This document shows positions 3,779 through 38,230 of a DNA stretch of 64,000 nt, piece after piece. Position numbers and translations under genes: made by a program. Every line of letters starts with the position of its first letter. The stretch's first letter is position 1. This DNA is from an uncultured Thermoleophilaceae bacterium (GTDB lineage: Bacteria; Actinomycetota; Thermoleophilia; Solirubrobacterales; Thermoleophilaceae). The notes under the pieces were generated by a model, which was not told where the DNA came from, did no database searches, and saw nothing but the letters and a program-made list of their open reading frames with translations. Where the stretch lies: contig CAVVIK010000003.1 of assembly GCA_963748315.1 (NCBI GenBank), positions 4,996-68,995 of the forward strand. Reading direction: 5' to 3'.

Positions 3779-4525
3779 ATGGCCGACCAGCTCTCGCTGC
3801 GCCTCGAGGCCGACCGGCTGCCCGATCTGCCGGACCTGCGGCCGATGCTCGCCGCGCCCGCTGCCGGCGCCGTTCGACTCGGACGAGCACCTGTTCGAGC
3901 CGTGGTGGGGCGGCGACGCGGGCGCTCGTGTCGATCGGCCCGGCCGACGCGGCCGGGAGCGGCGAGGTCGGATCGCGACGCCGACGGGCGCGACCTCACC
4001 GCGGCGCTCCCCGAGCTGGCCGGCACTGGCCGTCCGGGTCGCCGCACGGTCGGCGATCCTCGACGGGGAGCTGGTCGTCGTCGACGCCGCACGGCCGGGC
4101 CGATACCGCGGAGCTGGAGCGGCGACTCGCCGGCGAGGCCGGCCGGCCGGCCGCGTTCCTCGCCTTCGACCTGCTCCATCTCGACGGGCGGTCGCTGCTG
4201 TCGCAGCCGCTCGTCCGACGACGCGAGGCGCTGCGGCGGGTCCTCCGGCCGGGCGACGAGGTCGTCGCGGTGCCGGCGATCGCGACGGAGGGCATCGCGC
4301 TGTTCGATGCGGTCGTGGCCCAGGGCATCGCCGGGATGCTGGCCCGCCAGCGGCAGGGCCCCTACCTGCCCGGGCGTCCGCAGCCGGCTGTGGCGGTTCA
4401 TCCCGGCGGCCAGCCGGAGAGTCCCGTCGTCGAGGCGGAGCCGAGGACCGCCGGCCGCACCGACCGCGGCGACCGCGCCGGTCCTGGCGCTGATCAGCCG
4501 ACTGCCCCTCGACGACGAGGCGTAG
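3779..4525 (+). pseudogene. ATP-dependent DNA ligase (LigC / LigD ligase-domain type), frame-broken
   Basis: ATG 3779 gives MADQLSLRLEADRLPDLPDLRPMLAAP, followed by LFEPWWGG. ORF 3928-4566 has AFLAFDLLHLDGRSLLSQPLVRRREALRRVLRPGDEVVAVPAIATEGIALFDAVVAQGIAGMLARQRQGPYLPG. The tail ends at the TAG at 4523-4525 in the frame of ORF 3386-4525. Confidence 0.55.
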
Positions 4526-4536
4526 GCCGGGCGACT

Positions 4537-5876
4537 CAGCGCCGCGCGCGCGCGCCGCCGCGATGAACGCCCGGATCCCCGGACGCTGGCCGTACAGCAG
4601 CACGCCGGCCGCGTACATCCGGGTCGCGACCATCGCCACGACCACGATCGCCGCCACGAGCAGCCCGATCGACAGCGCGACCTGCCACGGCTGGACGGCG
4701 CCGACCATCAGCCGGGCGAGCATCACGAACGGGCTGAACGGCGGCAGGAACGACGCGATCGCGATCCACGTCCCGCCGCCGCCGCCGAGCGCCACGATCG
4801 CGGACAGGTAGCCGGCGATCGGCGACGAGGCTAGCGGCAGCGACAGGGTCTGCAGGTCATCCGGGCCGGCTGACGAACGAGCCCATCGACGCATAGATCA
4901 GCGCGAACAGCGTGAACCCGAGCAGGAAGAAGACGCCGTACCCGAGCGAGCAGCCCAGGGTCAGGCCGACCGGCGGCGCGCCCGTCGGCCCAGCCCGGCC
5001 CGAGGACCGCCTCGGCGATCCGGTCCTGGAACGCGAGGAGGACGAGCGCCGGCACGGCGATCGCGACGTACTGGGTCAGCCCGGCGGCGCCGATCCCGAC
5101 CACCTTGCCGGTCAGCATCTGGCGCGGCGACGCGGCGCTGATCATCAGCTCCATGACCCGGCTGCTCTTCTCGGCCGCGACGCCCGTCGCGACCCACATC
5201 CCGTAGATGACGACCGTGATGAACAGCAGGATGACGAACACGATGCCGAGGAAGGCGCGGCTGGCGACGCCTGCCGGCGTCGAGCGCACGTCCGCCCTCG
5301 GTCGGCGACGTTGGCGACTCGATCCTGAACTCGGCGGCTGGAACGCGCCGAGCTGGGAGTCCTCGGGCAGGGCCGACGTCCAGTCGACGATCGCCGAGGC
5401 CCAGGGCCGCGAACCCGACGAGCTGGGCTGCGGACGCTGTCGGCCGGCCCGTTCGTCGCGATAGACGACGTCGATCTGGCCGTCTGGGCAGTCGCTCGAC
5501 GATCATGACCCCGCCGATCGTCGCCGCTCGCGACAGCGTCGCGGCGGCCGACTCGGCGTCGGTCGCGCGCTCGACGATCGAACGGCTGCTTCCAGGTCGC
5601 CGGCGTCCACGCCCTGGGGCACGATGTTGAGCAGGCTGTCCGCGACACGGCGATGGCCCGCGGCGCCAGGTCTTCGTCGTCGGTCGACGACCGCGATGCG
5701 GGTGACCGTCTGACGGTCCAGGTAGCGGATCCCGATCGGGGCGAGCGCGACGACCAGCGCGAGCCCCATCAGGATGATCGTCGAGACGCGAAGAACAGCG
5801 GGCTGCGGACCCGGTCGCGGTACTCGCGGCGGGCGACGATCCCGGCGTTCGGCAGGAGCGGGTCGCGGCGCGCCAT
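4537..5876 (-). pseudogene. ABC-2 type exporter permease (NatB-like), frame-broken
   Basis: ATG 5876 (MARRDPLLPNAGIVARREYRDRVRSPLFF) overlaps the upstream ATPase stop as TGATG. ORF 4831-5289 has EKSSRVMELMISAASPRQMLTGKVVGIGAAGLTQY. The C-terminus LLYGQRPGIRAFIAAAR lies near 4,540. The pieces occupy at least 3 frames. Confidence 0.55.
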
Positions 5877-10796: not shown

Positions 10797-12996
10797 ATGG
10801 CCGCGATCCGTCCAGGGGTACCGCGACCGGTCCCGCCGCGTCCGGCCGTCGCCGCCGCGCGCCCGGCGTACGGCCCGCGACCCAGGCCGACCTTCCCGTA
10901 CCTCAACCGCGAGCTGTCGTGGCTCGAGTTCAACGCGCGCGTCCTGCACGAGGCCCGCGACGAGCGCAACCCGCTGCTCGAGCGGGTCAAGTTCCTGGCG
11001 ATCTTCGCCGGCAACCTCGACGAGTTCTTCCAGGTCCGCGTCGCCGGCCTGCGCCAGCAGGTCGAGGCCGGCAAGGTCGCCCGCTCGCCCGACGGCCGGA
11101 CCGCCGACGAGCAGCTCGCCGCCGCCGCGAGCCCGCGTCCTCGAGCTCGTCGCCGAGCATCGGCGATCTTCGTCGACGTCCGGCGGACGCTCGCCGCCGA
11201 GGGCATCGAGCTCGTCGACTACGCCGCGATCCCCGAGCACCACGAGGCCCTCCGCCAGCGCTTCCTCGACGAGATCTTCCCGGTCCTGACGCCGCTCGCG
11301 GTCGATCCCGGGCACCCGTTCCCGTACATCTCGACGCTCAGCCTGTCGATCGCGGTCGGCCTGCGCGATCCGGAGACCGGCGAGCGCGGCTTCGCCCGGG
11401 TCAAGGTGCCCGCAGATCCTGCCGCGCCTGATCGAGGTCGAGCCGTCCCGCTTCGTCCTGCATCGACCAGGTCATCGAGGCCAACCTCGACGCGCTGTTC
11501 TCCGGCATGGAGGTCCTCGAGCACCACCTCTTCCGGGTCACCCGCAACGCCGACTTCGACGATCGAGGAGGACGAGGCCGACGACCTCCTCCTCGCGATC
11601 GAGGAGGAGCTCCGCCGGCGCCGGTTCGGCGAGGCGGTCCGGCTCGAGGTCGAGCGGTCGATGCCGGCCGGCGACGCGGACCCTGCTGCTGCGCGGGCTC
11701 GGCCTCGAGCCGAGGACGACTGCTACGAGGTCAGCGGGATGCTCGACCTGACCGGGCTGTGGGCGATCGCCGACCTCGACCGGCCCGACCTCAAGCTCCC
11801 GCCGTGGACGCCGGTCACGCCGCCACGCCTGATCCCGCCCGACGAGGACGAGCCCGCCGACGTGTTCGCCGCGATCCGCGCCGGCGACATCCTGGTCCAC
11901 CACCCGTACGAGTCGTTCGCGGCGTCGGTCGAGCGGTTCATCACCCAGGCCGCCGACGACCCGGACGTCCTGACGATCAAGCTGACGCTCTACCGGACGT
12001 CGGGCGACTCGCCGATCGTCCAGTCGCTCATCCGGGCCGCCGAGCGCGGCAAGCAGGTCGTCGTCCTGGTCGAGATCAAGGCCCGCTTCGACGAGGAGGC
12101 GAACATCGTCTGGGCGCGCAAGCTCGAGCGGGCCGGCGCCCACGTCGTCTACGGCCTGGTCGGGCTCAAGACCCACTCGAAGATGGCGCTCGTCGTCCGC
12201 CGCGAGGGATCCGGGCTGCGCCGCTACGTCCACATCGGGACCGGCAACTACAACCCCAAGACCGCCCGCCTGTACACCGACCTCGGGCTGCTGACCTGCC
12301 GCCCCGAGATCGGCGCCGACGTCACCGACCTGTTCAACGTCCTGACCGGGCTGTCGCGCCAGCGGACGTTCCGGCGGCTGCTCGTCGCGCCGCACAGCCT
12401 GCGCAGCGCGGTTCCTCGAGCTCGTCGATCGCGAGATCGGCGCACGCGCCGGCCGGGCGCGCCGGCGCGGATCGTGCTCAAGATCAACGCGATCGTCGAC
12501 GTCGCCGTCATCGAGGCGCTCTACCGCGCGTCGAGGCCGGCGTCGACATCGATCTCATCGTCCGCGGCGTCTGCTCGCTCCAGCCCGGGCGTGCCCGGCG
12601 TCTCGGAGCGGATCCGCGTCCGCTCGATCGTCGGCGAGTTCCTCGAGCACTCGCGGATCTGGGGCTTCGAGAACGGCGGCGACGCGCGAGTGGTACATCG
12701 GCTCGGCGGACCTGATGGACCGCAACCTCGACCGGCGCGTCGAGGCGTCGTGCCGGTCGAGGACCACGAGCGCAGGCGCGCCTGGCGGAGATCATCGAGT
12801 GCATGCTCGCCGACGACCGGCGCTCGTGGCAGCTCCAGCCGGATGCGTCCTGGGTCCGGACCGAGGAGATCAAGGGACGGCCGGGGACGATCGACACGTT
12901 CGAGATGCTCAAGGAGGACGCCCTCGCGCAGGGCAGGTCGCTCGCGCGCCGCACCGGCCCGGCGCCGGCGCCGGCTCGCTGGACCCGCGGGCATGA
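10797..12996 (+). pseudogene. ppk: polyphosphate kinase 1, multiple frame changes
   Basis: From ATG 10797 the frame reads FPYLNRELSWLEFNARVLHEARDERNPLLERVKFLAIFAGNLDEFFQVRVAGL. Further on are VLVEIKARFDEEANIVWARKLERAGAHVVYGLVGLKTHSKMALVVRREG and GTGNYNPKTARLYTDLGLLT. The C-terminal parts (EHSRIWGFENGG, MDRNLDRRVE, FEMLKEDALAQ) are in other frames. The proposed stop is at 12994-12996. Confidence 0.75.
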
Positions 12997-13370
12997 CCGA
13001 CACCGTCGAGCCGTGGCCGCGCCACCTCCCGTCGAGGTCGAGCTGAAGTATCGCGTGTCGTCGACCTGGCCGCCGCGGAGCGGTACCTGGCGGCCGACGG
13101 ATCGGCGCGTTCGAGCGGCACGACGGCGGCCGCGCGCGTCGCAGTTCGAGGACCGCTACGTCGACACCGCCGACGGCGCCATGGCCCGGGCCGGCTTCGC
13201 GGTCCGGCTCCGCCAGACGAGGAAGGGCACGACGTGTCACGGTCAAGTCGCTCGCCCAGACCGACGGACGCGGGCGGGCGATGCGTCGCGAGGAGCTCGA
13301 AGGTCCGGCCGACCCCAAGGGCGGACCCGGCGAGTGGCCGACCAGCGCGGCTCGAGCAATACGGCGATCA
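12993..13370 (+). pseudogene. CYTH domain protein, frame-broken and apparently truncated
   Basis: ATG 12993 overlaps the ppk stop as ATGA. VEVELKYRV and FEDRYVDTADGAMARAGFAVRLRQTRKGT are recognisable. Similarity fades at about 13,350. Confidence 0.4.
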
Positions 13371-14140: not shown

Positions 14141-15757
14141 CTAGGCCGTGAGCGCGTGCGGCTGCGTTATCCGCGGCTTCGCGATCGACTCGGGCTCGGG
14201 CTCGTCGTCCGGCGCCGGCTTGTCCAGCAGCTGGTAGGCCAGGCGCGTCGCCAGCGCCATGATCGTGATCTGCGGGTTCACGCCGATCGAGCTGGGAATC
14301 ACGCTCGCGTCCGACACCCACACGTTCTCCATCTCGTGCAGGCGCAGATCGCCGGTGACGACGCCGTGATCCGGGCGCGCGTCGGCGCGCGCGGTGCCGA
14401 GCGGGTGGAACGCCATCAGGACGAGGTCCTGTGCGTTCAGCTCGGCACGGCGCAGCGGCTCGAGGTCGCCGCCGAGGATCTCGGGCACGCCGGCGACCGG
14501 CGGGTAGATCGCGCGCGCCCCCGCGGCGACGAACAGCTCGCACAGCCGCTCGATCCCCCGCGCGAAGGTGGCGGTGTCCTCGCGGTTCAGGTCGTAGCGG
14601 ATCTCGACACGCCCGGCGCGCTCGCGCACGTGGCCCCGTGAGAGGTCGGAGACCATCAGGCCGAACTGAGCGATGTTCCGGAACTGGAGCATCAGCTCGC
14701 GGTGCTTCTCGCCCGCGAACGGGAATGTCATCGCGGCGTAGTCCGGCGGCCCCGCGGCCCCCTCGAGCATGATCCCCTCGTCCGCGAACTCGTCGATGAA
14801 GTACGACTGCGGCACGCCGTTCGCCATGTCGATCTCCTCGTCGAACAGCGCGCGCACCGCCGTCGCGGGATGGATCGCGAGGTTGCGCCCGAGCTCGCCC
14901 GAGCGCCCGCCGAGGCCCTGCTTGGCGAGGAAGACCGGCGTGTGGATCGCCCCGCACGCGACGACGACGTGCGCGCACGTAACGCGCACTCGTCCGCCGC
15001 CCGCGGCGGTGGCGATCACCGCCTGCGCGCGGCGGCCGTCGTGCTCGATCCGCTCGGCGCGGCACTCGGTGAACGTCGTCGCCCCGGCGGCCCACGCTCT
15101 CGGCACGTAGCTCAAGCCCGACGTGCTGCTTGGCGGACGTCGGGCAGCCGAAGCCGCAGACGCCGGAGCCGACGCAGCCGCGCGCGTTGCGCCAGATGAA
15201 GTCGCCCCTCCACCCAATGCGTCCGCACCGCGCTTGGCGATCAGCGCGTTGCGGCCGGCGCGGTCCTCTGGCACCTGCACAACGTTCAGCTCTCGCTCGA
15301 CGCGGCGGAAGTAGGGATCGAGCTCGGCCAGGCCGTCGAGCCCGAACCGCTCGCCCCACATCTCGAGCACCGGCTCCGGCGTGCGGAAGCACGTGCCCGA
15401 ATTGATCATCGTCGTGCCGCCGATGCCCTTGCCGAGCGGCAGGATGATCGGCGTGTTGCCGACGGTCACGACCTGGCCGGCGTCGCGGTAGAGGATCGTC
15501 GACATCTCGCGCGGCCGGGCCGTGAAGTCGTCGGTCGTGAAGTGCCTGCCCTCCTCGAGCATCACGACGCTCATGCCGCCCTCTGCGAGCTCCTTCGCGA
15601 GCGGCGCGCCGCCGGCGCCGGTGCCGATCACGCACACGTCGCAATCGACCGAGCGGTCGTTCGGGATCCGCCCGCCGTCCTCCACCCGCGGCTCGACGGG
15701 TGGGTCCGGCGCGCCCCACTCGCGGTAGGCGTCGCCGGTCGTCGGGCGCACGCTCAC
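14141..15757 (-). CDS. GMC family FAD-dependent oxidoreductase
   Basis: The 538-aa ORF has the FAD Rossmann motif DVCVIGTGAGGAPLAKELAEGGMSVVMLEEG. Its C-terminal GMC motif is HPLGTARADARPDHGVVTGDLRLHEMENVWVSDASVIPSSIGVNPQITIMALA. GTG 15757 overlaps the upstream stop as GTGA. Confidence 0.85.
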   Translation of the reverse strand: MSVRPTTGDAYREWGAPDPPVEPRVEDGGRIPNDRSVDCDVCVIGTGAGGAPLAKELAEGGMSVVMLEEGRHFTTDDFTARPREMSTILYRDAGQVVTVGNTPIILPLGKGIGGTTMINSGTCFRTPEPVLEMWGERFGLDGLAELDPYFRRVERELNVVQVPEDRAGRNALIAKRGADALGGGATSSGATRAAASAPASAASAARRPPSSTSGLSYVPRAWAAGATTFTECRAERIEHDGRRAQAVIATAAGGGRVRVTCAHVVVACGAIHTPVFLAKQGLGGRSGELGRNLAIHPATAVRALFDEEIDMANGVPQSYFIDEFADEGIMLEGAAGPPDYAAMTFPFAGEKHRELMLQFRNIAQFGLMVSDLSRGHVRERAGRVEIRYDLNREDTATFARGIERLCELFVAAGARAIYPPVAGVPEILGGDLEPLRRAELNAQDLVLMAFHPLGTARADARPDHGVVTGDLRLHEMENVWVSDASVIPSSIGVNPQITIMALATRLAYQLLDKPAPDDEPEPESIAKPRITQPHALTA

Positions 15758-16191
15758 GGGCGCCCGTCCCGCTCGCGGACCGACCGGCCGCGCTCGACGT
15801 TCGCCTCGGCGTCGTAGCCGATCAGGAGCATCACCTGGTCGTCGCCGTAGTAGGCGAGCTGCCCGAAGCCCTGCATCAGCTTCCCGAGCTGGCGCAGCTG
15901 CGGGAGCCGGTTCTGCTCGATCGCGCGCAGGTACTCCGCGCGCCGCTTCGGCGTGAGACTGCGCATCCTCGCCCCGAAGCCGAGCAGGCGCGGCCCGGTC
16001 TCGAGTGCGTACAGGAGCGTGCGCAGCGCGACCCGGTTGGCGCGTGGCGCGCGGCCCATCATGCGGTCGAAGAACGCCACCGCGTCGGTGTCGCGCACGG
16101 GCGGCAACACCGGCTCGGGCGCGACCACCGTGTCGGCGAGACAGGCGAAAATCGAGGCCTCGCGCGGAGAGAGCACGGCCAGTTGGGCCAT
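15754..16191 (-). CDS. gluconate 2-dehydrogenase subunit 3-like small subunit
   Basis: This 145-aa ORF is translationally coupled to the GMC oxidoreductase. It reads LSPREASIFACLADTVVAP...QLAYYGDDQVMLLIGYD, typical of the small partner proteins of GMC dehydrogenases. Confidence 0.55.
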   Translation of the reverse strand: MAQLAVLSPREASIFACLADTVVAPEPVLPPVRDTDAVAFFDRMMGRAPRANRVALRTLLYALETGPRLLGFGARMRSLTPKRRAEYLRAIEQNRLPQLRQLGKLMQGFGQLAYYGDDQVMLLIGYDAEANVERGRSVRERDGRP

Positions 16192-16224
16192 GGCGGGACC
16201 CTACCTCTGATAGTCAGACAGGCC

Positions 16225-17349
16225 GTGCGCCGCCTGGTCCTGCTCGTCAGCGCGATCACCCTGCTCGACGTCGCCTTCTTCGCGGCGGTGGCGCCGCTGC
16301 TCCCGCACTACGTCGACGAGTTCGACCTCTCCAAGAGCGCCGCGGGGATCCTCACGGGTGCCTACGCCGCCGGCAACCTGGTCGCCGCGATTCCCGCCGG
16401 CTGGCTCGCCGGCCGCTGGGGAGTGAAGCCGACAACGATCGCGGGCCTGGCCGGCCTGGCTGTCTCGAGCCTCGTGTTCGGGCTCGCGCAGGACATCTGG
16501 CTCCTCGACGCCGCCCGCTTCACCCAGGGCCTTGCGAGCGCGTGCACCTGGGCCGCGGGCTTCGCGTGGGTCGTGGAACGCGCGCCGGCCGGACGGCGGG
16601 GTGAGGTGATCGGCACGCCGCTCGCCGCGGCGGTTGCCGGGACGCTCGTCGGACCTGTCCTCGGCACCGCCGCGGACGCGGCCGGGCCGGAGATCGTCTT
16701 CGCGGGCGTCGCGCTCGTCGCCGTCGCCCTGATCGTGCCGGCATCGCGCGAGCCGGCGCCGCCGGGCGAGCCGGCCGACATCCGGCGGGTCGTCGCGGCC
16801 ACGCGCATCCCGGCGGTCAGGCTCGGGTTCTGGCTCGTAGCGCTGCCCGCGCTCGCGGCGGGCGTCCTGAACGTCCTCGTCCCCCTGCGGATGGACGCGC
16901 TCGGTGCCGCCAGCGTCGCGATCGGCGGGACCTACCTCGTGGCGGCGACCCTCGAGACGATCGTCAACCCGCTCGTCGGCCGCTTCTCCGATCGCCGCGG
17001 CAGGCTCGTGCCGATACGCGCCGGGCTGCTCGCCGCGGCGGTGCTGCTCGTGTTGCTGCCGATCCCGGAGTCGGCCCCGGTCGTGGCTGTGCTCTTCGTG
17101 TGCACGGCGCTCACGACCGCCGCGTTCTGGACGCCGGCGATGGCGCTGCTCTCCGACGAGGTCGAGAGGGCGCGCGTGCACCAGGGATACGCGTTCGCGT
17201 TCACGAACATCGCGTGGTCGATCGGGCAGCTCGCGGGCAACGGCGGCGGCAGCGCGATCGCCCAGGCGACCGCGGACTGGGTCAGCTACGTCGCGGTCGC
17301 TGTTCTCTTCGCCGTCACGCTCGCGCGTCTGACGCGTCGGCCGGCGTAG
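16225..17349 (+). CDS. MFS transporter
   Basis: The hydrophobic multi-TM region from GTG 16225 reads VRRLVLLVSAITLLDVAFFAAVAPLLPHYVDEFDLSKSAAGILTGAYAAGNLVAAIPAGWLAGRWGVKP. The upstream part of ORF 15700-17349 is antisense to two real genes and is discounted. Confidence 0.7.
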   Translation: MRRLVLLVSAITLLDVAFFAAVAPLLPHYVDEFDLSKSAAGILTGAYAAGNLVAAIPAGWLAGRWGVKPTTIAGLAGLAVSSLVFGLAQDIWLLDAARFTQGLASACTWAAGFAWVVERAPAGRRGEVIGTPLAAAVAGTLVGPVLGTAADAAGPEIVFAGVALVAVALIVPASREPAPPGEPADIRRVVAATRIPAVRLGFWLVALPALAAGVLNVLVPLRMDALGAASVAIGGTYLVAATLETIVNPLVGRFSDRRGRLVPIRAGLLAAAVLLVLLPIPESAPVVAVLFVCTALTTAAFWTPAMALLSDEVERARVHQGYAFAFTNIAWSIGQLAGNGGGSAIAQATADWVSYVAVAVLFAVTLARLTRRPA

Positions 17350-19126
17350 TACGCGATCGCTGCGCCCACGAGCGTCAGCGCCACGCCGAGCCACGACGGG
17401 CCGGAGCTCCGCTCCGTCGCCGCCGGCTCATCTGCCGGTTCTAAGACAGGCGAGGCGTCGTCCTCCGAGATGCCCTGCGCCGGTGCCGGCCCGGGCACGT
17501 CCTTGTCAGCCGCTTTCGGCTTTTCCTTCGGTGGTTTCGCCGTTCCGCCCCCGTTGCCGGCACCACCGGACACGGGCGCCCCGCCACCGCCGCTCGAGTC
17601 GGTGGCCGCTCGCGTCCGCTGGCGCGGCACGGCTGCGAACGGCAGTGGCTTGCGCTTCAGGGCCATCAGCGCCTGCGCTGTCACCCACACCGGCGTCTGC
17701 GCGCTGACGCGCGAGTAGTCGACACTGCCGTCGCCGTTCTGCCGCGCGCGCAGGTAGCCGATCGGCGAGTTGCCGCTCTTGCGGAAGCGGCCGGGGTTGC
17801 GCTCAGCGGCGACGAGGCCCTGGACGGCGTAGGCGGTCGACTGCGAGTTCGAGCTGCGGCCCTCGAACTGCCCGAAGCCGCCGTCGCCGTTCTGCGCACG
17901 GCGCAGGTAGCCGACCGCGTCGTCGAGCGGGCCACCCCGCCCGGCCGTGGCCAGCGCCTGCATCGCTGCCCCCGTGTTGTCGACGTCCGACTGCGCGCTG
18001 GGCGACAGCCCGAACCCGCCGTCCTCATTCTGCTGCCGCGCGAGCCAGCGCGCCGGCTTGTTCGTGCCGGCGTCGGCGGCGCGCAGCGCGAGGATCCCGA
18101 ACGCCGTGTAGGAGATGAAGCCGGAGAACGAGCCGTCGGCGCGGCGATAACCGTTGAGACGCGCGACGAAGTCGCGTCCCGCGAAGTCGCGCGCGTTCAG
18201 CCCAGCCGCTTCGATCACGAGAATCGTTCGCTCGATCTCCCCCACGTCGCGGATCTGGCGCGCGCCGGAGCGGATGTAGTCGATCGCGCTGTGGCCGCGG
18301 CGCTCCACGTCGCGAGGATTGCGCCCGGCCGACGCGAGGCCGAGCGACGCCCATCCGGAGTACAGCGCGCCCGACGCTGTGCCCGGCGTGCTTCCGAACC
18401 CGCCGTCCTTGTTCTGCGCTTTCGCCATGTACGCGGCCGCGCGCTTGCTCGGGGACGCAGCGGATGCGCCGGCGGGCAGCGCGAGCATTAGGAGCACGGC
18501 GCCCGCGGCCACTGCGGCGGGCGCCCAGCGCACCTCGAAGCGGCGCCGGTAGCGCGACAAAGCGCGCAACAGCCCGGGCCCGATCAGCAGGCAGAAGACG
18601 ACGTTCCCGATCACGTGCGCGAGGTTGTACGGCAGCGAGCTGGCGCTCACGGCGATCCACGTGGCAAGGTCCTGCTCCGCGGCGAGCGTCCACTGGTAGG
18701 TGTCCATCACCGCGCCGAAGCCCGCGCCGGCGACCGCGCATGCGAGCGCGAGCGGCCAACGGCCGAGCTCGCGTCCGCGCGTCGCGCGTGCGAGCAGCGC
18801 GCCGCTGACGCCGACGCCGCCCCAGGCGACCATCTGCCACGGCGTCCACGGCCCGTGGCCCATGAAGATGTTCGAGACGACCGGGGTGATCGCGCCCACC
18901 GCGAACCCCGGCGCGCCGCCGAGCGCGTATCCCGACAGCAGGATGATGTCGGTGGTGGGCTTCACGTTCGGGAACGCCGCGAACGCGAGCCGCCCGACCA
19001 CGGCGAGGCCGGCCATCGCCGCGACGAGCGCGAGCACGCGCGCGCTCGGGCGCGAGCGCTCGTACCAGGCGAAGCCCGCGTCAGGACGACCGCGAGGATC
19101 GCGAATGACGCGAGCTGCCAGGTCAT
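17286..19126 (-). CDS. ECF transporter S-component fused to an extracytoplasmic prenyltransferase/squalene-cyclase-like alpha/alpha-toroid domain, with C-terminal TM anchor; apparent 1-nt frame break near 19,079
   Basis: ORF 17286-19037 has three parts. First is a ~170-aa polytopic S-component-like region (FPNVKPTTDIILLSGYALGGAPGFAVGAITPVVSNIFMGHGPWTPWQMVAWGGVG). Next is a domain with repeated QN.DGGFG-type motifs: AQNKDGGFG, RRADGSFSG, QQNEDGGFG, AQNGDGGFG and RQNGDGSVD. Last is a Gly/Pro/Lys linker and the TM WLGVALTLVGAAIAYYAG. ATG 19126 (MTWQLASFAILAVVLT) overlaps the EcfA stop as ATGA but sits in another frame. Confidence 0.7.
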
Positions 19127-20697
19127 CGGACGAGCTCCTCCGCCAGGAGCGCCGCGCCCGCCTCGGGCGTGAGCGCGCCGCCGGCCCCGTCGAGGATGCG
19201 CGCGACGTCCGTCGCGAAATGCCTGCCGCCGGCGAGGACGCTCGCCGCCGAGCCGTCGGCGATGACGTTGCCCTGGCCCATCAGCACGATGCGCTCGGCC
19301 CAGCTGGCGGCGAACTCGGTGTCGTGCGTCGCGACGATCACTGCGAGGCCGCGGCCGGCGAGCTCGCGAAGGCGCTGGCCGAGCGCCTCCTTCCAGCCGC
19401 GGTCCATGCCGCGCGTCGGCTCGTCGAGGCACACGACCGCGACGTCGTCTCCCTCGAGCACGATCTCGAGCGCCAGGCGCTGGCGTTCGCCGCCGGACAG
19501 GTCGCGCGGGTGCTTCGCCTCGCGGCCCGCCAGCCCGGCGCGCGCGATCGCGTCCGAGCCGGCCTCGTCGGCCACGTGCTCGTGGATCAGGAAGTCGCCG
19601 GGGTTCTGGAGCAGTAGCGCGACCTCGCCGCCGCGGACGACGCGGCCGCGTGTCGGATCGACGAGGCCCTTGGCGTGGCGCAGGAGCGTGCTCTTGCCCG
19701 CGCCGTTGCGCCCCATCAGCGCGACAAGCTCGCCCGGCCGCAGGTCGACATCAATGCCGCGCAGGATCGCCGGCCCGTCGGCGATCTCGTGCCAGACGCC
19801 CTCGAACCGCAACGCGGGACGGGCCCCCGCCTTCGGCGGATCCGGCGCCGCGGCGGCGGCGGCCGGCGCCAGGCCCGCGCCGTGGATCCGGTCGCGCGCC
19901 TCCTTGACCGACACGGGCGGCGGGCCTATTCCGGCGAGCGAGAACAGCCGCGCGGCCGGCGTCGCGAGCACGGAGCCGCGCTCGGTCGCCCAGTCGAGAA
20001 ACGCAGCCGGGCCCGCGTCGAACACGACCCGCCCGTCCTCCATCGCAAGCACGCGGTCCGCCGCCGGCAGGCAGCGCTCGACACGGTGCTCGGCCAGGAG
20101 GACCGCCGTTCCCCACTCCTCGTTCAGCCGCCGTAAGAGCCACACGAGGTCGTCGCCCGCGACCGGGTCGAGCTGCGAGGTCGGCTCGTCGAGCACGAGG
20201 AGAGACGGCTTGCCGGCGACGGCCGCAGCGAGCGCGACACGCTGCAGCTCGCCGCCCGAGAGCGTGTCGGTGCGGCGCTCCAGGAGATGGGCGACGCCCA
20301 GCTCGAGCGCAGCCTCCTCGACCGCGCGGGCGATCGCCGCCGCCTCGAGCCCGCGCTGCTCGAGTGGGAGCGCGAGCTCGGCGCGCACGCCGCTCATGAC
20401 GACCTGCGTCTCCGGGTCCTGGAGCAGCGTCGCGCAGCTCGCGGCCAGCTCGTTCGGGCCGTGGTCGCGGACGCTCATCCCGGCAACCTCGAGCTCGCCG
20501 TGCGCGTCGCCGCCGTGGAAGTGCGGCACTAGGCCGCACGCGGCGCGCAGGAGCGTCGACTTGCCGGAGCCCGACTCGCCGACCACGAGCGTGAAGGACC
20601 CCGGCTCGAGCTCGAGCGTGAGATCCGCGAGCGCGTCCTGTGCGGCGCTCGGGTACCGGTAGCCGAATCCCTCGGCGCGGAGCACGGGCTCAGGCAT
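19123..20697 (-). CDS. ECF transporter energy-coupling ATPase, fused EcfA-EcfA' (two ABC domains)
   Basis: The 524-aa ORF has two Walker A motifs (GESGSGKST, GRNGAGKST). It also has two signatures (LSGGELQRV, LSGGERQRL) and two Walker B motifs (LLVLDEPTS, VVCLDEPTR). Confidence 0.9.
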   Translation of the reverse strand: MPEPVLRAEGFGYRYPSAAQDALADLTLELEPGSFTLVVGESGSGKSTLLRAACGLVPHFHGGDAHGELEVAGMSVRDHGPNELAASCATLLQDPETQVVMSGVRAELALPLEQRGLEAAAIARAVEEAALELGVAHLLERRTDTLSGGELQRVALAAAVAGKPSLLVLDEPTSQLDPVAGDDLVWLLRRLNEEWGTAVLLAEHRVERCLPAADRVLAMEDGRVVFDAGPAAFLDWATERGSVLATPAARLFSLAGIGPPPVSVKEARDRIHGAGLAPAAAAAAPDPPKAGARPALRFEGVWHEIADGPAILRGIDVDLRPGELVALMGRNGAGKSTLLRHAKGLVDPTRGRVVRGGEVALLLQNPGDFLIHEHVADEAGSDAIARAGLAGREAKHPRDLSGGERQRLALEIVLEGDDVAVVCLDEPTRGMDRGWKEALGQRLRELAGRGLAVIVATHDTEFAASWAERIVLMGQGNVIADGSAASVLAGGRHFATDVARILDGAGGALTPEAGAALLAEELVR

Positions 20698-21571
20698 GCG
20701 CCACCCCCAGCCGCGCGCGGGCGCCGGCGAACGGTGCCAGCGCGAGAAGCGGCAGCAGCACGACCGCGGCGACGTCGGCCGGGGCCGCCGCGACCGCGAG
20801 CGTCGGGTAGGGGTCGAAGCCGCCGGCGCCTGCCACGCGCGTCGCGATCGCGGTTACCGCGATCGCCCCCGCTGCCAGCGCCACGCGCACGTCGTGGCGC
20901 GACCACGGCGCGGCATACCGCGGCGGCCGCTGCGCAGACGCATACCCGCGCAGCTCGAGCGCCGCCGCGACGTCCACCGCCCGCTCGAGCGCTCCCGCGA
21001 GTGTCGCGCGCGCGACCGCTGCGCGCGCGGGCGGCCGCGGCCGGCAACGCGCCGCGTCGCCCATCCTGAGCGCGTCCCGCGCGAGCACCGGCGCGAGCCG
21101 GGTGGCGAGCGACGCGGTGAGCGCGCTGCGGTACGACACGCGCCGCACGAGTCGCAGGAGGTCATCGGGATCGACACATGCGGAGAACAGGGCCAGCGCC
21201 AGCGCGAGCACGAACAGGCGCAGGCCGGCGGCGCCGCCGTAGGCGATCGCCTCGAGCGTGATCTCGATCCGATAGCCGAGCACCTCGCCGCCGCGGAACA
21301 GGAGCGTCGCCCCCTCGCGGTAGACGAGCGGGTTGATGATCACGATCAGGAGCACGAGCGGCACGGCGAGCCGCGCCGCGCGCGCGAGCTCCGCGCCGAC
21401 GCCGGCCGCGATTCCGGCGAGCGTCGCGGCGGCGAGCCCGCCCGCGAGCACGAGCGGGCTGTCGTAGAGCATCGGGACGAGTGCGAGCGCCGCGCAGAAG
21501 GACGTCGTCGCGCCGGCGCGGGCGGCGTGGAGCGGGCTCGGCCGCGGCTGGTATGTGGGCACGAGCCTCAT
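20690..21571 (-). CDS. ECF transporter transmembrane T component (EcfT / CbiQ family)
   Basis: ATG 21571 overlaps the upstream stop as ATGA. It reads MRLVPTYQPRPSPLHAARAGATTSFCAALALVPMLY...ITLEAIAYGGAAGLRLFVLALALALFSACVDPDDLLRLVRRVSYRSALTASLATRLAPVL...ALELRGY. The stop overlaps the EcfA start by 8 nt. Confidence 0.8.
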   Translation of the reverse strand: MRLVPTYQPRPSPLHAARAGATTSFCAALALVPMLYDSPLVLAGGLAAATLAGIAAGVGAELARAARLAVPLVLLIVIINPLVYREGATLLFRGGEVLGYRIEITLEAIAYGGAAGLRLFVLALALALFSACVDPDDLLRLVRRVSYRSALTASLATRLAPVLARDALRMGDAARCRPRPPARAAVARATLAGALERAVDVAAALELRGYASAQRPPRYAAPWSRHDVRVALAAGAIAVTAIATRVAGAGGFDPYPTLAVAAAPADVAAVVLLPLLALAPFAGARARLGVAHA

Positions 21572-22497
21572 TCGCCGTCCTCCGGCAGCGGGAGCTTGAC
21601 CGGCCCGTCTGCGGTGGCTGCGACGGCGAACGCGTTGCGCAGCGAGCGCGCGTCGAGGATGGAGGCCGCCGCCTGGACGCCGAGGTCGTCGAGCCCGGTC
21701 ACGATCCACACCACGGCCTGCTCCTCGAGCGCGGTCGCGGCCACGAGGCCGGTGCCCGGGTCGGCGGTTTGCACGGCGTCGCCATCCTCGTCGAGTAGCT
21801 CGAGCCGCTGGCCGTCATCGGTGAAGCGCGCGAACACCCCGCTCGCCTCGGGCCCCTCCTCGAGCAGGGCGGGCGTGCGCACGTCGCGCAGCTCGTCCCA
21901 CGTCCCCACGAGCACCCGGACGAGGTCCTTGCCGCCCGAGGCCGCGAGCTGCGATGAGCTGACACGCGCGCCGACGCCGGTCAGCGAGTCCTTGACGGAG
22001 GAGCACGCCTCGTCGTCCGAGTCGGCGCACTCGAGCCGAACCGGCAGCCGCTCGCCCTCGAGACCGCTGCGGAACGGCTCGGGGTAGGCGCCGACGATCG
22101 CCGGTATGCGCTCCTTCGCGCTCCAGTCGCGGTTGTCCCACTGGATCACGTCGCCGGCGTGCACTTCCCAGTCCGCCGCGCCGCGGTCGGCCCAGATGCC
22201 GTTTACGTAGTAGAACCAGTCGCGCGTGCCGCCGCCGCCCCCGGAACCCTCGAGGCCGTCGATCGCCTCCACGAAATTGCCGCCGAAGCGCGTGTCGACG
22301 TCGTGCTGCGACTGGAGCAGGCGCATGACGCTCTCGTCCTCGTGCACCGTGTCGATCTTGTCGGCGGCCAGCTGCTCGTGGCCGAAGTCCTTCGTCACAC
22401 GGATGTCTGCGCCGCCGTCCTGCGCCTCGCCCTCGCCGAACCCGCATCCGCCGAGGCAGATGGCGATGGTGAGGGCGACGGCGGCGACGCGTGTCAC
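21568..22497 (-). CDS. lipoprotein with DUF4430 (transcobalamin-like C-terminal) domain plus an unassigned C-terminal domain
   Basis: GTG 22497 overlaps the upstream stop as GTGA. The signal and lipobox read VTRVAAVALTIAICLGGC. The DUF4430-type pattern is SVMRLLQSQHDVDTRFGGNFVEAIDGLEGSGGGGGTRDWFYYVNGIWADRGAADWEVHAGDVIQWDN. Confidence 0.7.
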   Translation of the reverse strand: MTRVAAVALTIAICLGGCGFGEGEAQDGGADIRVTKDFGHEQLAADKIDTVHEDESVMRLLQSQHDVDTRFGGNFVEAIDGLEGSGGGGGTRDWFYYVNGIWADRGAADWEVHAGDVIQWDNRDWSAKERIPAIVGAYPEPFRSGLEGERLPVRLECADSDDEACSSVKDSLTGVGARVSSSQLAASGGKDLVRVLVGTWDELRDVRTPALLEEGPEASGVFARFTDDGQRLELLDEDGDAVQTADPGTGLVAATALEEQAVVWIVTGLDDLGVQAAASILDARSLRNAFAVAATADGPVKLPLPEDGE

Positions 22498-23188
22498 TCG
22501 ACGCGCACCCTCTCTGCGAACGAGCGGACGAAGCCGTCCTTCTCCGCGTACAGCCGGTGTGCGCCGGAGGCGAGGGCCAGCGTCGCGGTCCCGTCCGAGT
22601 CGGTCTCGGCCGTGCGGTTGCCGGCATGAACCGTCGCGCCCGCGAGCCGCGTGCCACGGCCCTCGTCGTCGTATGCGGTGACTCGCGCCGAGACGGTCCC
22701 CCCGCCCTCGTCGCGCACTCGCAGTCCGAGCGTCCGCTGGCAGCCGCCGACACGGAAGACGCAGTAGAACCACGTCACCCGCACGCGCCGCTTGATGCGC
22801 CCGCTGCCGAAGGGCCCGCTCGGGTCGGCGGCGCCGGTCGTGCCCTGCCGGTTGCCGACCTTGTAGACCCAGCCCGAGTCGCCGCGATTCCGGTCGTCGC
22901 CAATTTTGCGTACGAACAGGCTCGCCGGGTCGCAGGAGCCGGAGAAGTCGCGCACCTTAGCCTCGCCACGTCACTGCGCACGAGTGCGGCCAGCGGCGTC
23001 GCGCTGGGCACGCGGCAGCGGTGGTCACTCGCGCGTGTGCGCGTGCGTGCCGTGCCGACGGTCTCGCTCTTGGCCGTCCCGTCGCGGAAGACGACGAGCT
23101 GATCGAAGCGCGGCGCGCCGTTTGCGAGCGGCGCCACCGCCCCCGCAAATGCGAGGACGGCGGCGATCACGATCGCGGCTCGGGTCAC
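22494..23188 (-). CDS. secreted DUF4430 domain protein with C-terminal carboxypeptidase-regulatory-like Ig fold; apparent 1-nt frame break near 22,958
   Basis: GTG 23188 overlaps the upstream stop as GTGA. The signal peptide MTRAAIVIAAVLAFAGAVAPLANG and SATPLAALVRSDVARL are in ORF 22775-23188. The continuation KVRDFSGSCDPASLFVRKIGDDRNRGDSGWVYKVGNRQGTTGAADP...RVTWFYC plus GATVHAGNRTAETDSDGTATLALASGAHRLYAEKDGFVRS is in ORF 22494-22955. Confidence 0.65.
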
Positions 23189-24147
23189 CTGCGCCTGACC
23201 GTCTCGCAGTTGCGCTTGACGCGGTCGAGCTGGTCGACGCGCGCGACGTCGTCGCCGCGGCCGCAGCGGATCTTGTCCGACGCGTCGTCGCCGCGCGAGT
23301 TGATCCTGTCGTCGCCGGCGCGGCCGGCGAACCGCTCCGGGTTGTCGGTGCCGCGCATGCGGTCATCGCCACGGGTGCCAATTGTCCAACCGGTCAGCCA
23401 CCTGTCGCACTCGGAAGCGGAGTCCTCCCACACGCACAGGTGCAGCAGGTCCGTCTGGACGTCGCCATCTCGAACGCCGCGGATGAACGGCCGGCTGGCC
23501 TCGTCGAAGACGACCTCCGCGGTGCCGTCCGCACCCGTCATCACGTCGCCTGCGCCATCGAGTCGAACGCCCGCAGCCGGCATGACCGCGCCGTTGTCGT
23601 CGTATTCACGGACGTTCACGTCCACGGGAGTGCCCGCCTGCACCACGTTGTCGGACAGGACGAGTTCGAGCTCCTTGCCGACGTTCGTGCCGGTGTCGAG
23701 GTTCAGGAAGTACCACAGCACCTCGCCATGCGAGCGGTTGATTGGGAACTGGTCGGCGCCGATCTCCGGCAGGACGTGATCGACCTTGTAGCTCCAGAAC
23801 GCCGTGTCGCTGCCCACGAAGCCGCCGATACCGCATACGAACTTGCCGAAGTCGAACTCGTCGCTGACCTGCACCGGACGCAGGTCGCGGGTGAATTCGG
23901 CCGCCTGGAATACGAGACCGAGGGCCGACGGGCCGTCGATCGCGTAGCTGTTGCTAGTGCCGCCACACGCGGCGCTCGCTTCGTACGTCACGGAGTCGTG
24001 CACGTAGCGGAAGCCCGGGCCGATGTCGTGGCCGCCGGCCTCGACACGCAGCTTGGTGGTCACGGCATCGGCGATGGCGGGCGAAGCCGCCATCACCACG
24101 AACACGCACACGGCAAGAGCCGCGCGCTTCAGGGAATGGATGTGCAT
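23185..24147 (-). CDS. secreted DUF4430 domain protein with Ig-like middle region and RTX-like GDD repeats
   Basis: ATG 24147 follows GAAAGGG. The signal peptide is MHIHSLKRAALAVCVFVVMAASPAIADA. The DUF4430-type pattern is GPSALGLVFQAAEF...FGKFVCGIGGFVGSDTAFWSYKVDHVLPEIGADQFPINRSHGEVLWYF. The C-terminus is GTRGDDRMRGTDNPERFAGRAGDDRINSRGDDASDKIRCGRGDDVARVDQLDRVKRNCETV. Confidence 0.7.
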   Translation of the reverse strand: MHIHSLKRAALAVCVFVVMAASPAIADAVTTKLRVEAGGHDIGPGFRYVHDSVTYEASAACGGTSNSYAIDGPSALGLVFQAAEFTRDLRPVQVSDEFDFGKFVCGIGGFVGSDTAFWSYKVDHVLPEIGADQFPINRSHGEVLWYFLNLDTGTNVGKELELVLSDNVVQAGTPVDVNVREYDDNGAVMPAAGVRLDGAGDVMTGADGTAEVVFDEASRPFIRGVRDGDVQTDLLHLCVWEDSASECDRWLTGWTIGTRGDDRMRGTDNPERFAGRAGDDRINSRGDDASDKIRCGRGDDVARVDQLDRVKRNCETVRRR

Positions 24148-24182
24148 CAGAGGCACCCTTTCCTCGAGGGTTGACGTTGCCT

Positions 24183-24348
24183 GTGACCGGAGGCAGGTCT
24201 CCTGGCTCCCGGATTCGCCCTTCCGCGCCTTCCCGGGGTGCTGTCGCTCCCCAGTGGCTGCCATTGGCGGATGGCCTAGCCGGTCACAGTGGCGGGACCG
24301 CGCCGGATTTGCACCGGACTTCCCTTGACCACCGGTCGCCGCCCAGGA
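24183..24348 (-). promoter_or_regulatory. cobalamin (B12) riboswitch
   Basis: The minus strand reads GGTGGTCAAGGGAAGTCCGGTGCAAATCCGGCGCGGTCCCGCCACTGTGACCGG (core, ~24,280-24,335). It continues GCAGCCACTGGGG...CCCCGGGAAGGCG. The B12 box GAGCCAGGAGACCTGCCTCCGG follows (box at 24,192-24,207). This lies 36 nt upstream of ATG 24147. It matches the conserved Cbl-riboswitch core and B12 box from memory of the family consensus. Confidence 0.85.
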
Positions 24349-24810: not shown

Positions 24811-25460
24811 GTCGTGGCGACGAGATACCCGCCGGCGACGTCGCTCGGGAAATGCCAGTCGAGCGACATGATCGCGAAGCCAACCGCGAGCGCGAAGAGT
24901 GCGCCGATGCAGCCGACCAGCGGCTTGAGCCGTGCGGGCGCGACCATCACCGCCGCCAGCGCTAGCGACATCGCCGCCGTGGCGTGCCCGCTGGGGAAGG
25001 CCTCGGCGGCGACGTCGAACTCGCCGAACGTCCCGCGTGGGTTCGCGAGCAGCGGCTTCAGCACCTGGCTCGTCACGTTCGCCCCGACCAGCATCACGCC
25101 CGCGGCAAGTCCGACGAGCGGATATCCACGCACGAACGCGATCGCGACGAGAATGAGCCCGATCAGCGCGAAGGGCTTGGGGTCCGCGAGCGTCGCAATG
25201 TTGTCCGCAAGTTCGGCGAGGCGGGGCCGCTGGAGCTCGCCAAAGCCGTGAAGCGCGCGCTGGTCGGCGGCGGCACCCGGCTCGGTCGTGTAGACGACCG
25301 CCAGCAGGACCAGGAAGGCGGCGACGCAGACAGCCGCGGCCGTCCAGAGCCGCCGGGGCGTATCCAGCATCCGTTCGAGGCTACTGAGCGCCCCCGCCGC
25401 AATCGCGGCCAAGAACGACCACGGCCGAGCCTCTAGAATCGCCCGTTCCCAGGCCGCCAT
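24768..25460 (-). CDS. PAP2 superfamily phosphatase (membrane)
   Basis: Three PAP2 motifs are present: KPLLANPR, PSGH and WHFPSDVAGG. The protein is polytopic. The longest start, 25460, overlaps tRNA-Glu by 8 nt, so the internal ATG at 25370 (MLDTPRRLW) may be the true start. Confidence 0.75.
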   Translation of the reverse strand: MAAWERAILEARPWSFLAAIAAGALSSLERMLDTPRRLWTAAAVCVAAFLVLLAVVYTTEPGAAADQRALHGFGELQRPRLAELADNIATLADPKPFALIGLILVAIAFVRGYPLVGLAAGVMLVGANVTSQVLKPLLANPRGTFGEFDVAAEAFPSGHATAAMSLALAAVMVAPARLKPLVGCIGALFALAVGFAIMSLDWHFPSDVAGGYLVATTWCFAALPCCGQAG

Positions 25461-25525
25461 CGTCTAGGGGACTAGGACGCCGCCCTCTCACGGCGGAAAC
25501 CGGGGTTCGAATCCCCGTGGCGGTA
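25453..25525 (+). tRNA. tRNA-Glu (anticodon CTC)
   Basis: A 73-nt cloverleaf. Acceptor GCCGCCA/TGGCGGT; D arm GTCT-AGGGGACTA-GGAC; anticodon arm CCGCC-CTCTCAC-GGCGG; T arm CGGGG-TTCGAAT-CCCCG; discriminator A. No CCA is encoded. Confidence 0.9.
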
Positions 25526-38159: not shown

Positions 38160-38230
38160 CGGCGCATTGTGACCGGAGGGCGGTCGCGCTGACCCGTCCC
38201 GTATCGCTCTCCCCGGCCGACCTCTCGGCC

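Follow-up and report, generated by a model that had tools for sequence, protein, structure and literature searches.

Here we describe a fusion gene on the minus strand of a 64,000-nucleotide stretch of contig CAVVIK010000003.1 (hereafter, the window) from an uncultured Thermoleophilaceae bacterium. Its product joins an S-component of an energy-coupling factor (ECF) transporter to a large α/α toroid, a disordered linker and a C-terminal transmembrane (TM) anchor. The protein is probably the S subunit of a dedicated importer of vitamin B12 or related corrinoids under the control of a cobalamin riboswitch, with the toroid and co-encoded DUF4430 proteins serving as the capture module. The best-supported part of this reading is the ECF importer of the CbrT type, predicted to be dedicated and repressed by B12; we further infer that the toroid participates in capturing corrinoids and remains covalently attached. 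The first-pass annotation, made from the sequence of the window, had proposed a reading frame of four such parts at 17286–19126. In N- to C-terminal order, the segments of the protein are encoded as follows:

19038–19126, minus strand: TM0, an extra N-terminal helix (MTWQLASFAILAVVLT/AGFAWYERSRPSAR), out of frame in this copy through a one-nucleotide deletion near 19079
18528–19037, minus strand: predicted CbrT-type ECF S-component bundle, residues 1–170 of the 583-residue open reading frame (ORF), from the match to 6FNP_A and the helices modelled by AlphaFold2 (AF2)
18459–18527, minus strand: seventh hydrophobic segment, signal-peptide-like (WAPAAVAAGAVLLMLALPAGASA), hydropathy 1.93, which brings the chain outside
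17622–18458, minus strand: extracytoplasmic α/α toroid, containing five repeats of the QN-DGGFG type and, as SDVDNTG, a decayed DxDD motif, from Pfam, a profile search of the Protein Data Bank (PDB), Foldseek and AF2
17394–17621, minus strand: disordered linker rich in Gly, Ala, Pro, Ser and Lys, 76 residues, from composition and a predicted local distance difference test score (pLDDT) below 50
17286–17393, minus strand: C-terminal TM anchor (WLGVALTLVGAAIAYYAG), basic cytoplasmic tail and stop codon, from a hydropathy peak and six Lys/Arg residues in the tail

The N-terminal bundle is predicted to be a CbrT-type vitamin B12 S-component that would bind cobalamin or cobinamide. Searched as a single sequence, it matched chain A of PDB entry 6FNP with an E-value of 8.8e-15, query residues 29–196 aligning with chain residues 9–175 and thus with almost the whole chain. 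A profile built from 13 family sequences and run against the entire PDB returned 6FNP_A as the sole match (E = 1e-24), and no other S-component appeared at E ≤ 10. This chain, named 'Membrane protein' and 182 residues long, should be CbrT judging from the composition of the entry; ECF-CbrT of L. delbrueckii transports cobalamin and cobinamide (Santos et al. 2018, PMC5997447). The Pfam matches of the N-terminal 170 residues to ECF_trnsprt, ECF-ribofla_trS and DUF6580 were all weak and sub-threshold; the ECF_trnsprt alignment spans positions 3–167 of 169, below the curated cutoff. AF2 modelled helices across residues 2–167 (pLDDT 80–96) that make up a six-TM bundle, and segments rich in Lys and Arg precede TM1 and follow TM6, with both ends of the bundle in the cytoplasm. 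The expected partners, an EcfT and two EcfA ATPase domains, are encoded directly upstream on the same strand and are conserved in the relatives. Members of the CbrT family are stand-alone proteins of about 180–200 residues, a length from which the 583 residues found here and the 609–640 residues of intact homologues clearly depart. The match to CbrT, together with the EcfT and the fused EcfA-A' immediately upstream, bears out the earlier description of an ECF S-component-like bundle of about 170 residues, and nothing in the sequence and profile searches against the PDB spoke for a different kind of protein.

The toroid occupies residues 194–472 (280 residues) and was modelled by AF2 with a pLDDT of 96–99. 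It contains all five repeats that had been quoted by the first-pass annotation, namely AQNKDGGFG (207–215), RRADGSFSG (298–306), QQNEDGGFG (335–343), AQNGDGGFG (381–389) and RQNGDGSVD (432–440). The Pfam families Prenyltrans, SQHop_cyclase_C/N and TED_complement (macroglobulin) were found in 21–23 of the 23 members scanned, Prenyltrans and SQHop_cyclase in all 23. A profile of the toroid matched squalene-hopene cyclase (SHC) in the PDB with an E-value of 1.5e-37, and the top Foldseek matches were drimenyl-PP synthase, SHC and prenyltransferase beta (probability 1.00, E about 1e-7), in agreement with the squalene-cyclase/prenyltransferase type suggested at first sight. The sequence SDVDNTG (17970–17990, minus strand) aligns with the catalytic DxDD motif of drimenyl-PP synthase and SHC and reads DVDN, so that the window copy lacks the complete motif of class II cyclases. 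The motif of the family is S-D-x-D-[M/N/I/D], the fourth residue being Met in 61, Asn in 37, Ile in 5 and Asp in 10 of 113 homologues. Although the motif is decayed overall, D353 is invariant (113/113) and may have been re-used for ligand contact; SNAQST and QTPVWVT are likewise strongly conserved. The toroid region also matched the NCBIfam model of the SCO2321 family membrane protein (NF053823) in three stretches with 89.5 bits (E = 2e-25), a score that falls well short of the 300-bit equivalog cutoff and therefore does not make the protein a member of that family.

An intact protein has nine hydrophobic segments: TM0, the six of the S-component, a seventh at residues 171–193 and the C-terminal one. 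The seventh segment had not been listed by the first-pass annotation, and without it the toroid would be cytoplasmic. Clusters of Lys and Arg follow TM0 (RSRPSAR), lie in the TM4–5 region, follow TM6 (RALSRYRRRFEVR, six Lys/Arg) and make up the C-terminal tail (RRVRRASVTAKR, six Lys/Arg); the last two flank the cytoplasmic ends of the helices before and after the toroid. According to the positive-inside rule, this distribution places the N terminus and the toroid outside and the S-component in its usual in-in orientation. The charge bias thus agrees with the extracellular toroid assumed earlier and gives no indication of a toroid in the cytoplasm. The proposed Gly/Pro/Lys-rich linker corresponds to 76 residues (A13 G13 P11 S8 K5) with a pLDDT below 50 in both AF2 models, variable among homologues in length as well as in sequence, and the proposed final TM helix to SWLGVALTLVGAAIAYYAG followed by RRVRR. 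AF2 modelled the anchor helix at residues 549–579, and the anchor is conserved in the family consensus.

The seventh segment looks like a Sec signal peptide in its anatomy and is atypical as a TM helix. A basic n-region (RRYRRRFEVR) precedes a short h-region of about 15 residues, which is followed by Pro at −6 in 95, Ala at −3 in 104 and Ala at −1 in 97 of 113 homologues. The pLDDT at this segment is about 50 in both AF2 models. Toroids related to the one in the fusion also occur on their own, behind conventional N-terminal signal peptides; P0180 is a stand-alone toroid. Because the segment is signal-peptide-like and such stand-alone toroids exist, the fusion probably arose when an S-component gene was joined to a downstream gene for a secreted toroid.

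In the window, the fusion gene is an uninterrupted ORF on the minus strand, running from a GTG start at 19037 to 17286 and encoding 583 residues plus the stop codon. The frame is open without a stop from 19127 down to 17286, and this GTG is the first start past the upstream in-frame stop. All four parts reported to share one reading frame do lie within this ORF, but the ATG at 19126 is not in that frame. The interval 17286–19126 has 1841 nucleotides, which is not a multiple of three; its translation on the plus strand, or on the minus strand in the frame implied by these coordinates, runs into stops throughout, and an offset of one nucleotide is required. The ATG at 19126, the start codon in homologues, shares nucleotides with the TGA of the ABC ATPase gene upstream, and the frame that it opens, which reads MTWQLASFAILAVVLT, is a different one. 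A DNA alignment with L001, the metagenomic locus encoding the homologue P0002 (84% identical as a protein; 95% identity over the DNA stretch compared), revealed a single-base deletion near 19079 (ACG-GCG versus AC-GCG) that shifts the frame between the first 16 codons (MTWQLASFAILAVVLT), which begin with the conserved ATG, and the remainder of the gene. Since other genes of the window, gene 2 of the operon (below) included, are frameshifted as well, an error of assembly probably explains the deletion. The penicillin amidase gene at 30114–32734 (plus strand) is split into three successive frames (Pfam positions 2–65, 86–255 and 257–575). A frame scan based on the GC content of third codon positions (GC3) indicated more abutting switches at about 751–1420 (plus), 1573–1945 (minus), 2005–2284 (minus) and 4111–5268 (minus), and such switches across the window suggest an indel-prone assembly. 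The close relatives P0044 (96% identical) and P0046, from similar assemblies of metagenome-assembled genomes (MAGs), are likewise broken. GC3 stays constant at 0.93 along the fusion ORF, in a window of 71% GC. The 3' end of the gene overlaps by 64 nucleotides (17286–17349) with a convergent ORF for a major facilitator superfamily (MFS) transporter at 15700–17349 (plus strand), and L001 has a convergent overlap of the same 64 nucleotides in length.

The N-terminal helix lost through this deletion had been absent from the first-pass annotation. Homologues of 609–640 residues start with MTWQLASF and continue with AGFAWYERSRPSAR or LTAGFAWYERSRPSARVLALV, which constitutes TM0. AF2 modelled residues 3–25 of the intact homologue P0002 as a helix, with a pLDDT of 60–73. 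TM0 is present in 31 of 33 complete representatives, and W3, S7, L11 and the stretch G18-F19-x-W21-Y22-E23-R24-x-x-P27 are each conserved to at least 90% (numbering of P0002 residues 1–30). By charge bias, the N terminus of TM0 is predicted to be outside. The helix resembles the extra N-terminal helix of CbiM/NikM, the N terminus of which is outside and enters the binding pocket.

Six translationally coupled genes on the minus strand, whose stop and start codons abut or overlap, make up the operon, and the fusion gene is the last of them. They follow a cobalamin riboswitch in the order gene 1, gene 2, gene 3, EcfT, fused EcfA-A' and fusion, a context that, like the riboswitch, had been missed by the first-pass annotation:

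24175–24348, minus strand: aptamer of the cobalamin riboswitch that heads the operon (Rfam RF00174, 93.2 bits, E = 7e-22, aligned over the full model, 1–189)
23185–24147, minus strand: gene 1, secreted, with a signal peptide (MHIHSLKRAALAVCVFVVMAASPAIADA), a weak DUF4430 match (Pfam, E = 5.5e-4) and RTX-like C-terminal repeats
22494–23188, minus strand: gene 2, secreted, with a CarboxypepD_reg-like domain (Pfam CarboxypepD_reg, E = 5e-6) and a frameshift near 22955
21568–22497, minus strand: gene 3, a lipoprotein (lipobox LTIAICLGGC) with a DUF4430 or transcobalamin-beta-like (SLBB) domain (Pfam DUF4430, E = 2.3e-13)
20690–21571, minus strand: EcfT (CbiQ family) TM coupling subunit (Pfam CbiQ, E = 3.3e-11; NCBIfam ECF_T_CbiQ weak)
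19123–20697, minus strand: fused EcfA-EcfA' ATPase with two ABC domains, 524 residues (Pfam ABC_tran in two stretches, E = 2e-43)

DUF4430 is the C-terminal, B12-contacting domain of transcobalamin according to two earlier reports (PMC4350170; PMC1796856). In gene 3, this domain scored 50.8 bits against a cutoff of 23.8, and the gene was conserved in all loci with enough flanking sequence; a search of the PDB with the single lipoprotein sequence returned nothing meaningful. Gene 1, the least conserved gene of the operon, has a DUF4430 match below the curated cutoff, and its homologue in L011 has one above it (4.6e-8), followed by HemolysinCabind. The beta-like domain is therefore encoded by the operon partner at 21568–22497, and weakly by that at 23185–24147, and not by the fusion gene; the link to transcobalamin runs through these separate DUF4430 proteins rather than through the toroid. 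Gene 2 consists of two overlapping ORFs in different frames, the halves of which lie in a single frame in 13 of the 14 related loci in which both were matched. A DUF4430-like motif was seen in gene 2 by eye, and Pfam gave it no support. BLASTP among the products of genes 1–3 as three putative SLBB paralogues found no significant similarity, so that the assignment of gene 2 to DUF4430 is by eye only. The GTG start of gene 3 abuts the stop of gene 2, and EcfT starts with an ATG at 21571 right next to the stop codon of gene 3 (21568–21570). The fused ATPase matched NCBIfam ECF_ATPase_1 with an E-value of 6e-73 and ECF_ATPase_2 with 9e-69. A scan for promoters and terminators gave nothing above the expectation from shuffled sequence, and a scan of ten large ORFs of the window showed neither a B12-dependent enzyme nor a gene of B12 biosynthesis. 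A tRNA gene (25453–25525, plus strand) lies just upstream of the riboswitch and adjoins it also in L002, L005 and L021, serving as a synteny marker.

The fused architecture is widespread. A protein search yielded 5757 proteins at E ≤ 1e-5, the best 120 of which mostly have 600–700 residues and both domains, and more than 100 metagenome proteins carry the two domains continuously in frame. An exhaustive search of representatives found 564 clusters at E ≤ 1e-30; both domains are present in 109 of 149 cluster representatives, 33 of which are complete. Among GTDB species genomes, at least 578 loci matched. In each of the best 80, one in-frame alignment runs across both domains. This continuity, together with that in the metagenome proteins, shows that the architecture is no artefact, and an origin by chance, stop-loss or frameshift is ruled out by the 80 in-frame loci. 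All 80 belong to Thermoleophilia (Thermoleophilaceae, Solirubrobacteraceae, Conexibacter) except one labelled Bifidobacterium breve. That MAG locus (L047, CAMCUD010000046.1) has a typical Solirubrobacterales-type operon with the fusion at 52% identity, and its label is probably wrong or the bin contaminated. Gene order is kept in related loci wherever the flank is long enough. Rfam found a cobalamin riboswitch upstream on the same strand in 8/8 loci, and nhmmer did so in all of the loci with enough upstream DNA (64/64). A second cobalamin-riboswitch-like element stands back to back with the first on the opposite strand in L025 (3267–3661), L030 (3271–3665) and L044 (2183–2608), which points to a divergently transcribed second B12-regulated unit in these three loci. 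Two distant relatives were also seen. P0227 (834 residues) is an S-component–toroid fusion (38% identity) in which the N-terminal extension is longer and additional C-terminal sequence precedes the anchor. P0233 (1786 residues), a giant secreted protein, combines five PKD domains with several toroids of the same subfamily; considered as a 'Rosetta stone' linking toroid and DUF4430, it showed no DUF4430 in Pfam at E ≤ 0.001. Database labels assigned automatically read either 'ECF transporter S component' or 'prenyltransferase beta subunit', and each of them hides half of the protein.

We propose that the intact protein would run from TM0, with its N terminus outside, through the six-helix CbrT-type S-component, the signal-like helix, the 280-residue toroid and a spacer of about 75 residues to the TM anchor. 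When B12 is scarce, the riboswitch would permit expression of the whole operon. The toroid and the co-encoded secreted or lipid-anchored DUF4430 proteins would capture a corrinoid at the membrane surface and pass it to the CbrT pocket, and the EcfT/EcfA-A' module would power its import. With toroid and S-component on a single chain, a 1:1 stoichiometry and proximity would be guaranteed. This capture and hand-over module would be analogous in its logic to the two halves of transcobalamin. A more specific arrangement, in which the attached toroid and the DUF4430 lipoprotein form a transcobalamin-like clamp over the CbrT pocket and the N terminus of TM0 (M-[ST]-W) acts in gating or liganding as in CbiM, is a tentative extension that we consider doubtful. 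If true, it would amount to an ECF transporter with a built-in extracellular capture module handing B12 straight to a toppling S-component.

Several observations weigh against a corrinoid-capturing fusion protein. The likeness of the toroid to transcobalamin, intrinsic factor and haptocorrin, for which the first-pass annotation had suggested a search, was not found: none of the three is in the Foldseek top 50 against the PDB, no chain of them is among the best 60 of the 68 PDB profile matches at E ≤ 10, and Pfam Cobalamin_bind appeared in just 1 of 23 members, with an E-value of 0.29 in a scan at E ≤ 10. In the full-length AF2 models, the toroid itself is confident, but its placement relative to the S-component pocket, directly above which it had been imagined, is not reliable in either model (predicted template modelling score 0.58–0.59). 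S-components are thought to topple within the complex and, in some systems, to dissociate; a tethered domain of 280 residues has to be squared with the toppling that 6FNP shows for CbrT. The window copy carries the frameshift that removes TM0, and the unfused system of L. sakei is tied experimentally to the uptake of heme, not B12 (bioRxiv 10.1101/864751).

The strongest competitor concerns the attachment of the toroid. Signal peptidase I may cut after the conserved A-x-A, which would free the toroid from the S-component, so that it would not be 'held at both ends'. One chain would be made and then divided into a CbrT S-component with an extra C-terminal helix and a separate toroid on its own C-terminal TM helix, like SCO2321-type proteins, the fusion being a device for co-expression and co-insertion instead of a permanent tether. 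The n- and h-regions, the conserved Pro and Ala positions, the low pLDDT, the stand-alone relatives with classical signal peptides and the 89.5-bit match to the SCO2321 family all speak for this, as does the second AF2 model (P0002), where the segment is mostly coil. However, cutting of internal signal-like segments behind a polytopic domain is not routine for signal peptidase, A-x-A motifs come easily in Ala-rich sequence of a 71% GC genome, and the first AF2 model has residues 172–186 helical. We regard cleavage as a serious possibility that falls short of being probable. It is quite unlikely that the fusion gene, and perhaps the whole operon, is decaying as a pseudogene in this genome. Two frameshifts in a single operon, in the fusion gene and in gene 2, would be real mutations in that case, yet the penicillin amidase gene in three frames and the other abutting switches, the same kind of damage in P0044 and P0046 and the GC3 maintained along the ORF argue otherwise. 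An active terpene cyclase or prenyltransferase at the cell surface is extremely improbable. The strong similarity in sequence and fold to SHC, drimenyl-PP synthase and prenyltransferase beta subunits and the SDxD relic aligned with DxDD speak for such an enzyme, but decay of the motif makes cyclase-type catalysis unlikely (the complete form persists in 10 of the 113 homologues), and the toroid as an active cyclase was rejected on this ground. Moreover, the single toroid lies outside the membrane, away from isoprenoid diphosphates, and its linkage to a B12 riboswitch and an ECF module is invariable.

The role of the toroid and the identity of the substrate also admit other readings. The toroid could leave corrinoid binding to the DUF4430 proteins and serve as their docking platform or as a spacer, keeping them beside the S-component, or it could anchor the complex in the cell wall. 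Its lack of detectable similarity to transcobalamin-alpha, the two to three extracytoplasmic partner proteins conserved in the operon and the action of related TED toroids (complement, alpha-2-macroglobulin) in protein–protein contexts would fit such a scaffold. On the other hand, toroid and beta domain of transcobalamin both contact B12 (PMC1796856), and the conserved D353, SNAQST and QTPVWVT suit a ligand site as well as an interface; a pure scaffold thus appears rather unlikely to us. Import of heme or another tetrapyrrole instead of corrinoids would follow the precedent of the L. sakei operon, where the same set of components is linked to heme uptake (bioRxiv 10.1101/864751). We find it highly unlikely here, as every locus open to examination has the operon under a cobalamin riboswitch and, among solved S-components, that of the fusion matches only CbrT, which is specific for B12. 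The importer of corrinoids with an attached capture module remains the reading that we favour.

Elsewhere in the window are genes for a polyphosphate kinase (10893–12683, plus strand), a wax-ester synthase/DGAT (38207–39646, plus) and an S15 X-Pro dipeptidyl peptidase (61353–63503, minus). In the related locus L042, the fusion gene is followed, about 3.7 kb downstream, by a cyclic di-AMP riboswitch (13169–13313, plus strand, 66 bits).

ECF transporters are the textbook case of ABC importers operating with no extracytoplasmic binding protein. The whole class Thermoleophilia, abundant in soil, fuses a B12-type S-component to a folded outside domain and co-encodes transcobalamin-beta-like proteins. 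Should the toroid participate in capture, the fusion would be a natural and genetically compact model for the hand-over from a capture module to an S-component, and it would also probe how much movement an S-component needs. It bears on the origin of animal B12 carriers as well, in that the toroid paired with the beta-like domain in these bacteria is clearly of the squalene-cyclase/prenyltransferase type. The prediction of bacterial toroid and DUF4430 proteins as B12 scavengers (2007), the unfused version in L. sakei and the structure and function of CbrT are already known. Neither the covalent S-component–toroid architecture with TM0 and C-terminal anchor nor its dominance in Thermoleophilia was found in the literature searched, the scope of which did not include Rodionov et al. 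2009 (cbrTUV, cbrS).

The closest known relatives differ from the fusion in instructive ways. Natural CbiM-CbiN fusions of Co/Ni ECF transporters likewise extend an S-component with TM segments and an extracytoplasmic element that aids substrate loading; CbiN is a small protein with two TM helices and a loop and serves a metal-ion substrate, in contrast to the folded domain of 280 residues here. ECF-CbrT of L. delbrueckii (6FNP) shares with the window system a homologous S-component, ECF-type energising subunits and a corrinoid substrate, which for the window is predicted from the riboswitch. CbrT, however, is a stand-alone protein of 182 residues that shares a general ECF module (group II), whereas the S-component of the window adds an N-terminal helix, the toroid and the anchor, and its operon supplies a dedicated EcfT and EcfA-A' fusion (group I-like). 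SHC (1GSZ), drimenyl-PP synthase (7XQ4) and the beta subunits of FTase/GGTase have the same fold and QW-like repeats, but the toroid of the window is a single domain with a decayed DxDD, extracytoplasmic and in a transporter context. The SCO2321 family (NF053823) matches the toroid region and is described as a membrane protein; its model of 405 positions, judged from this length alone, fits a protein without an S-component.

Transcobalamin, intrinsic factor and haptocorrin resemble the system in the logic of an α/α toroid combined with a DUF4430-type beta domain. In these mammalian carriers, toroid and beta domain sandwich one B12 molecule. The two halves are on one soluble chain there and on separate polypeptides here, and the toroid of the window is by sequence of the squalene-cyclase/prenyltransferase type, with no detectable similarity to Cobalamin_bind. 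Bacterial surface proteins with SLBB (DUF4430) domains and toroids were predicted to be B12 scavengers by Burroughs, Balaji, Iyer and Aravind in 2007, and the systems described in the part of their paper considered here also encode an extracytoplasmic toroid and SLBB with a CbiO-like ATPase and CbiQ-like membrane proteins (PMC1796856). That part contains toroid–SLBB fusions and paralogous SLBB proteins, and a fusion of toroid and S-component is not among them. The L. sakei locus lsa1836–1840 was reported in a 2019 preprint to encode an S-component, a fused A-A', a T subunit, a prenyltransferase-like toroid and a transcobalamin-beta-like protein, which are predicted to cooperate in the capture of tetrapyrroles outside the cell (bioRxiv 10.1101/864751). 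By this description, it has the same set of five components as the operon of the window. Its toroid, however, is separate and secreted, whereas that of the window is fused to the S-component and anchored in the membrane, and the L. sakei system has been assigned to heme, whereas the operon described here is under the control of a cobalamin riboswitch.

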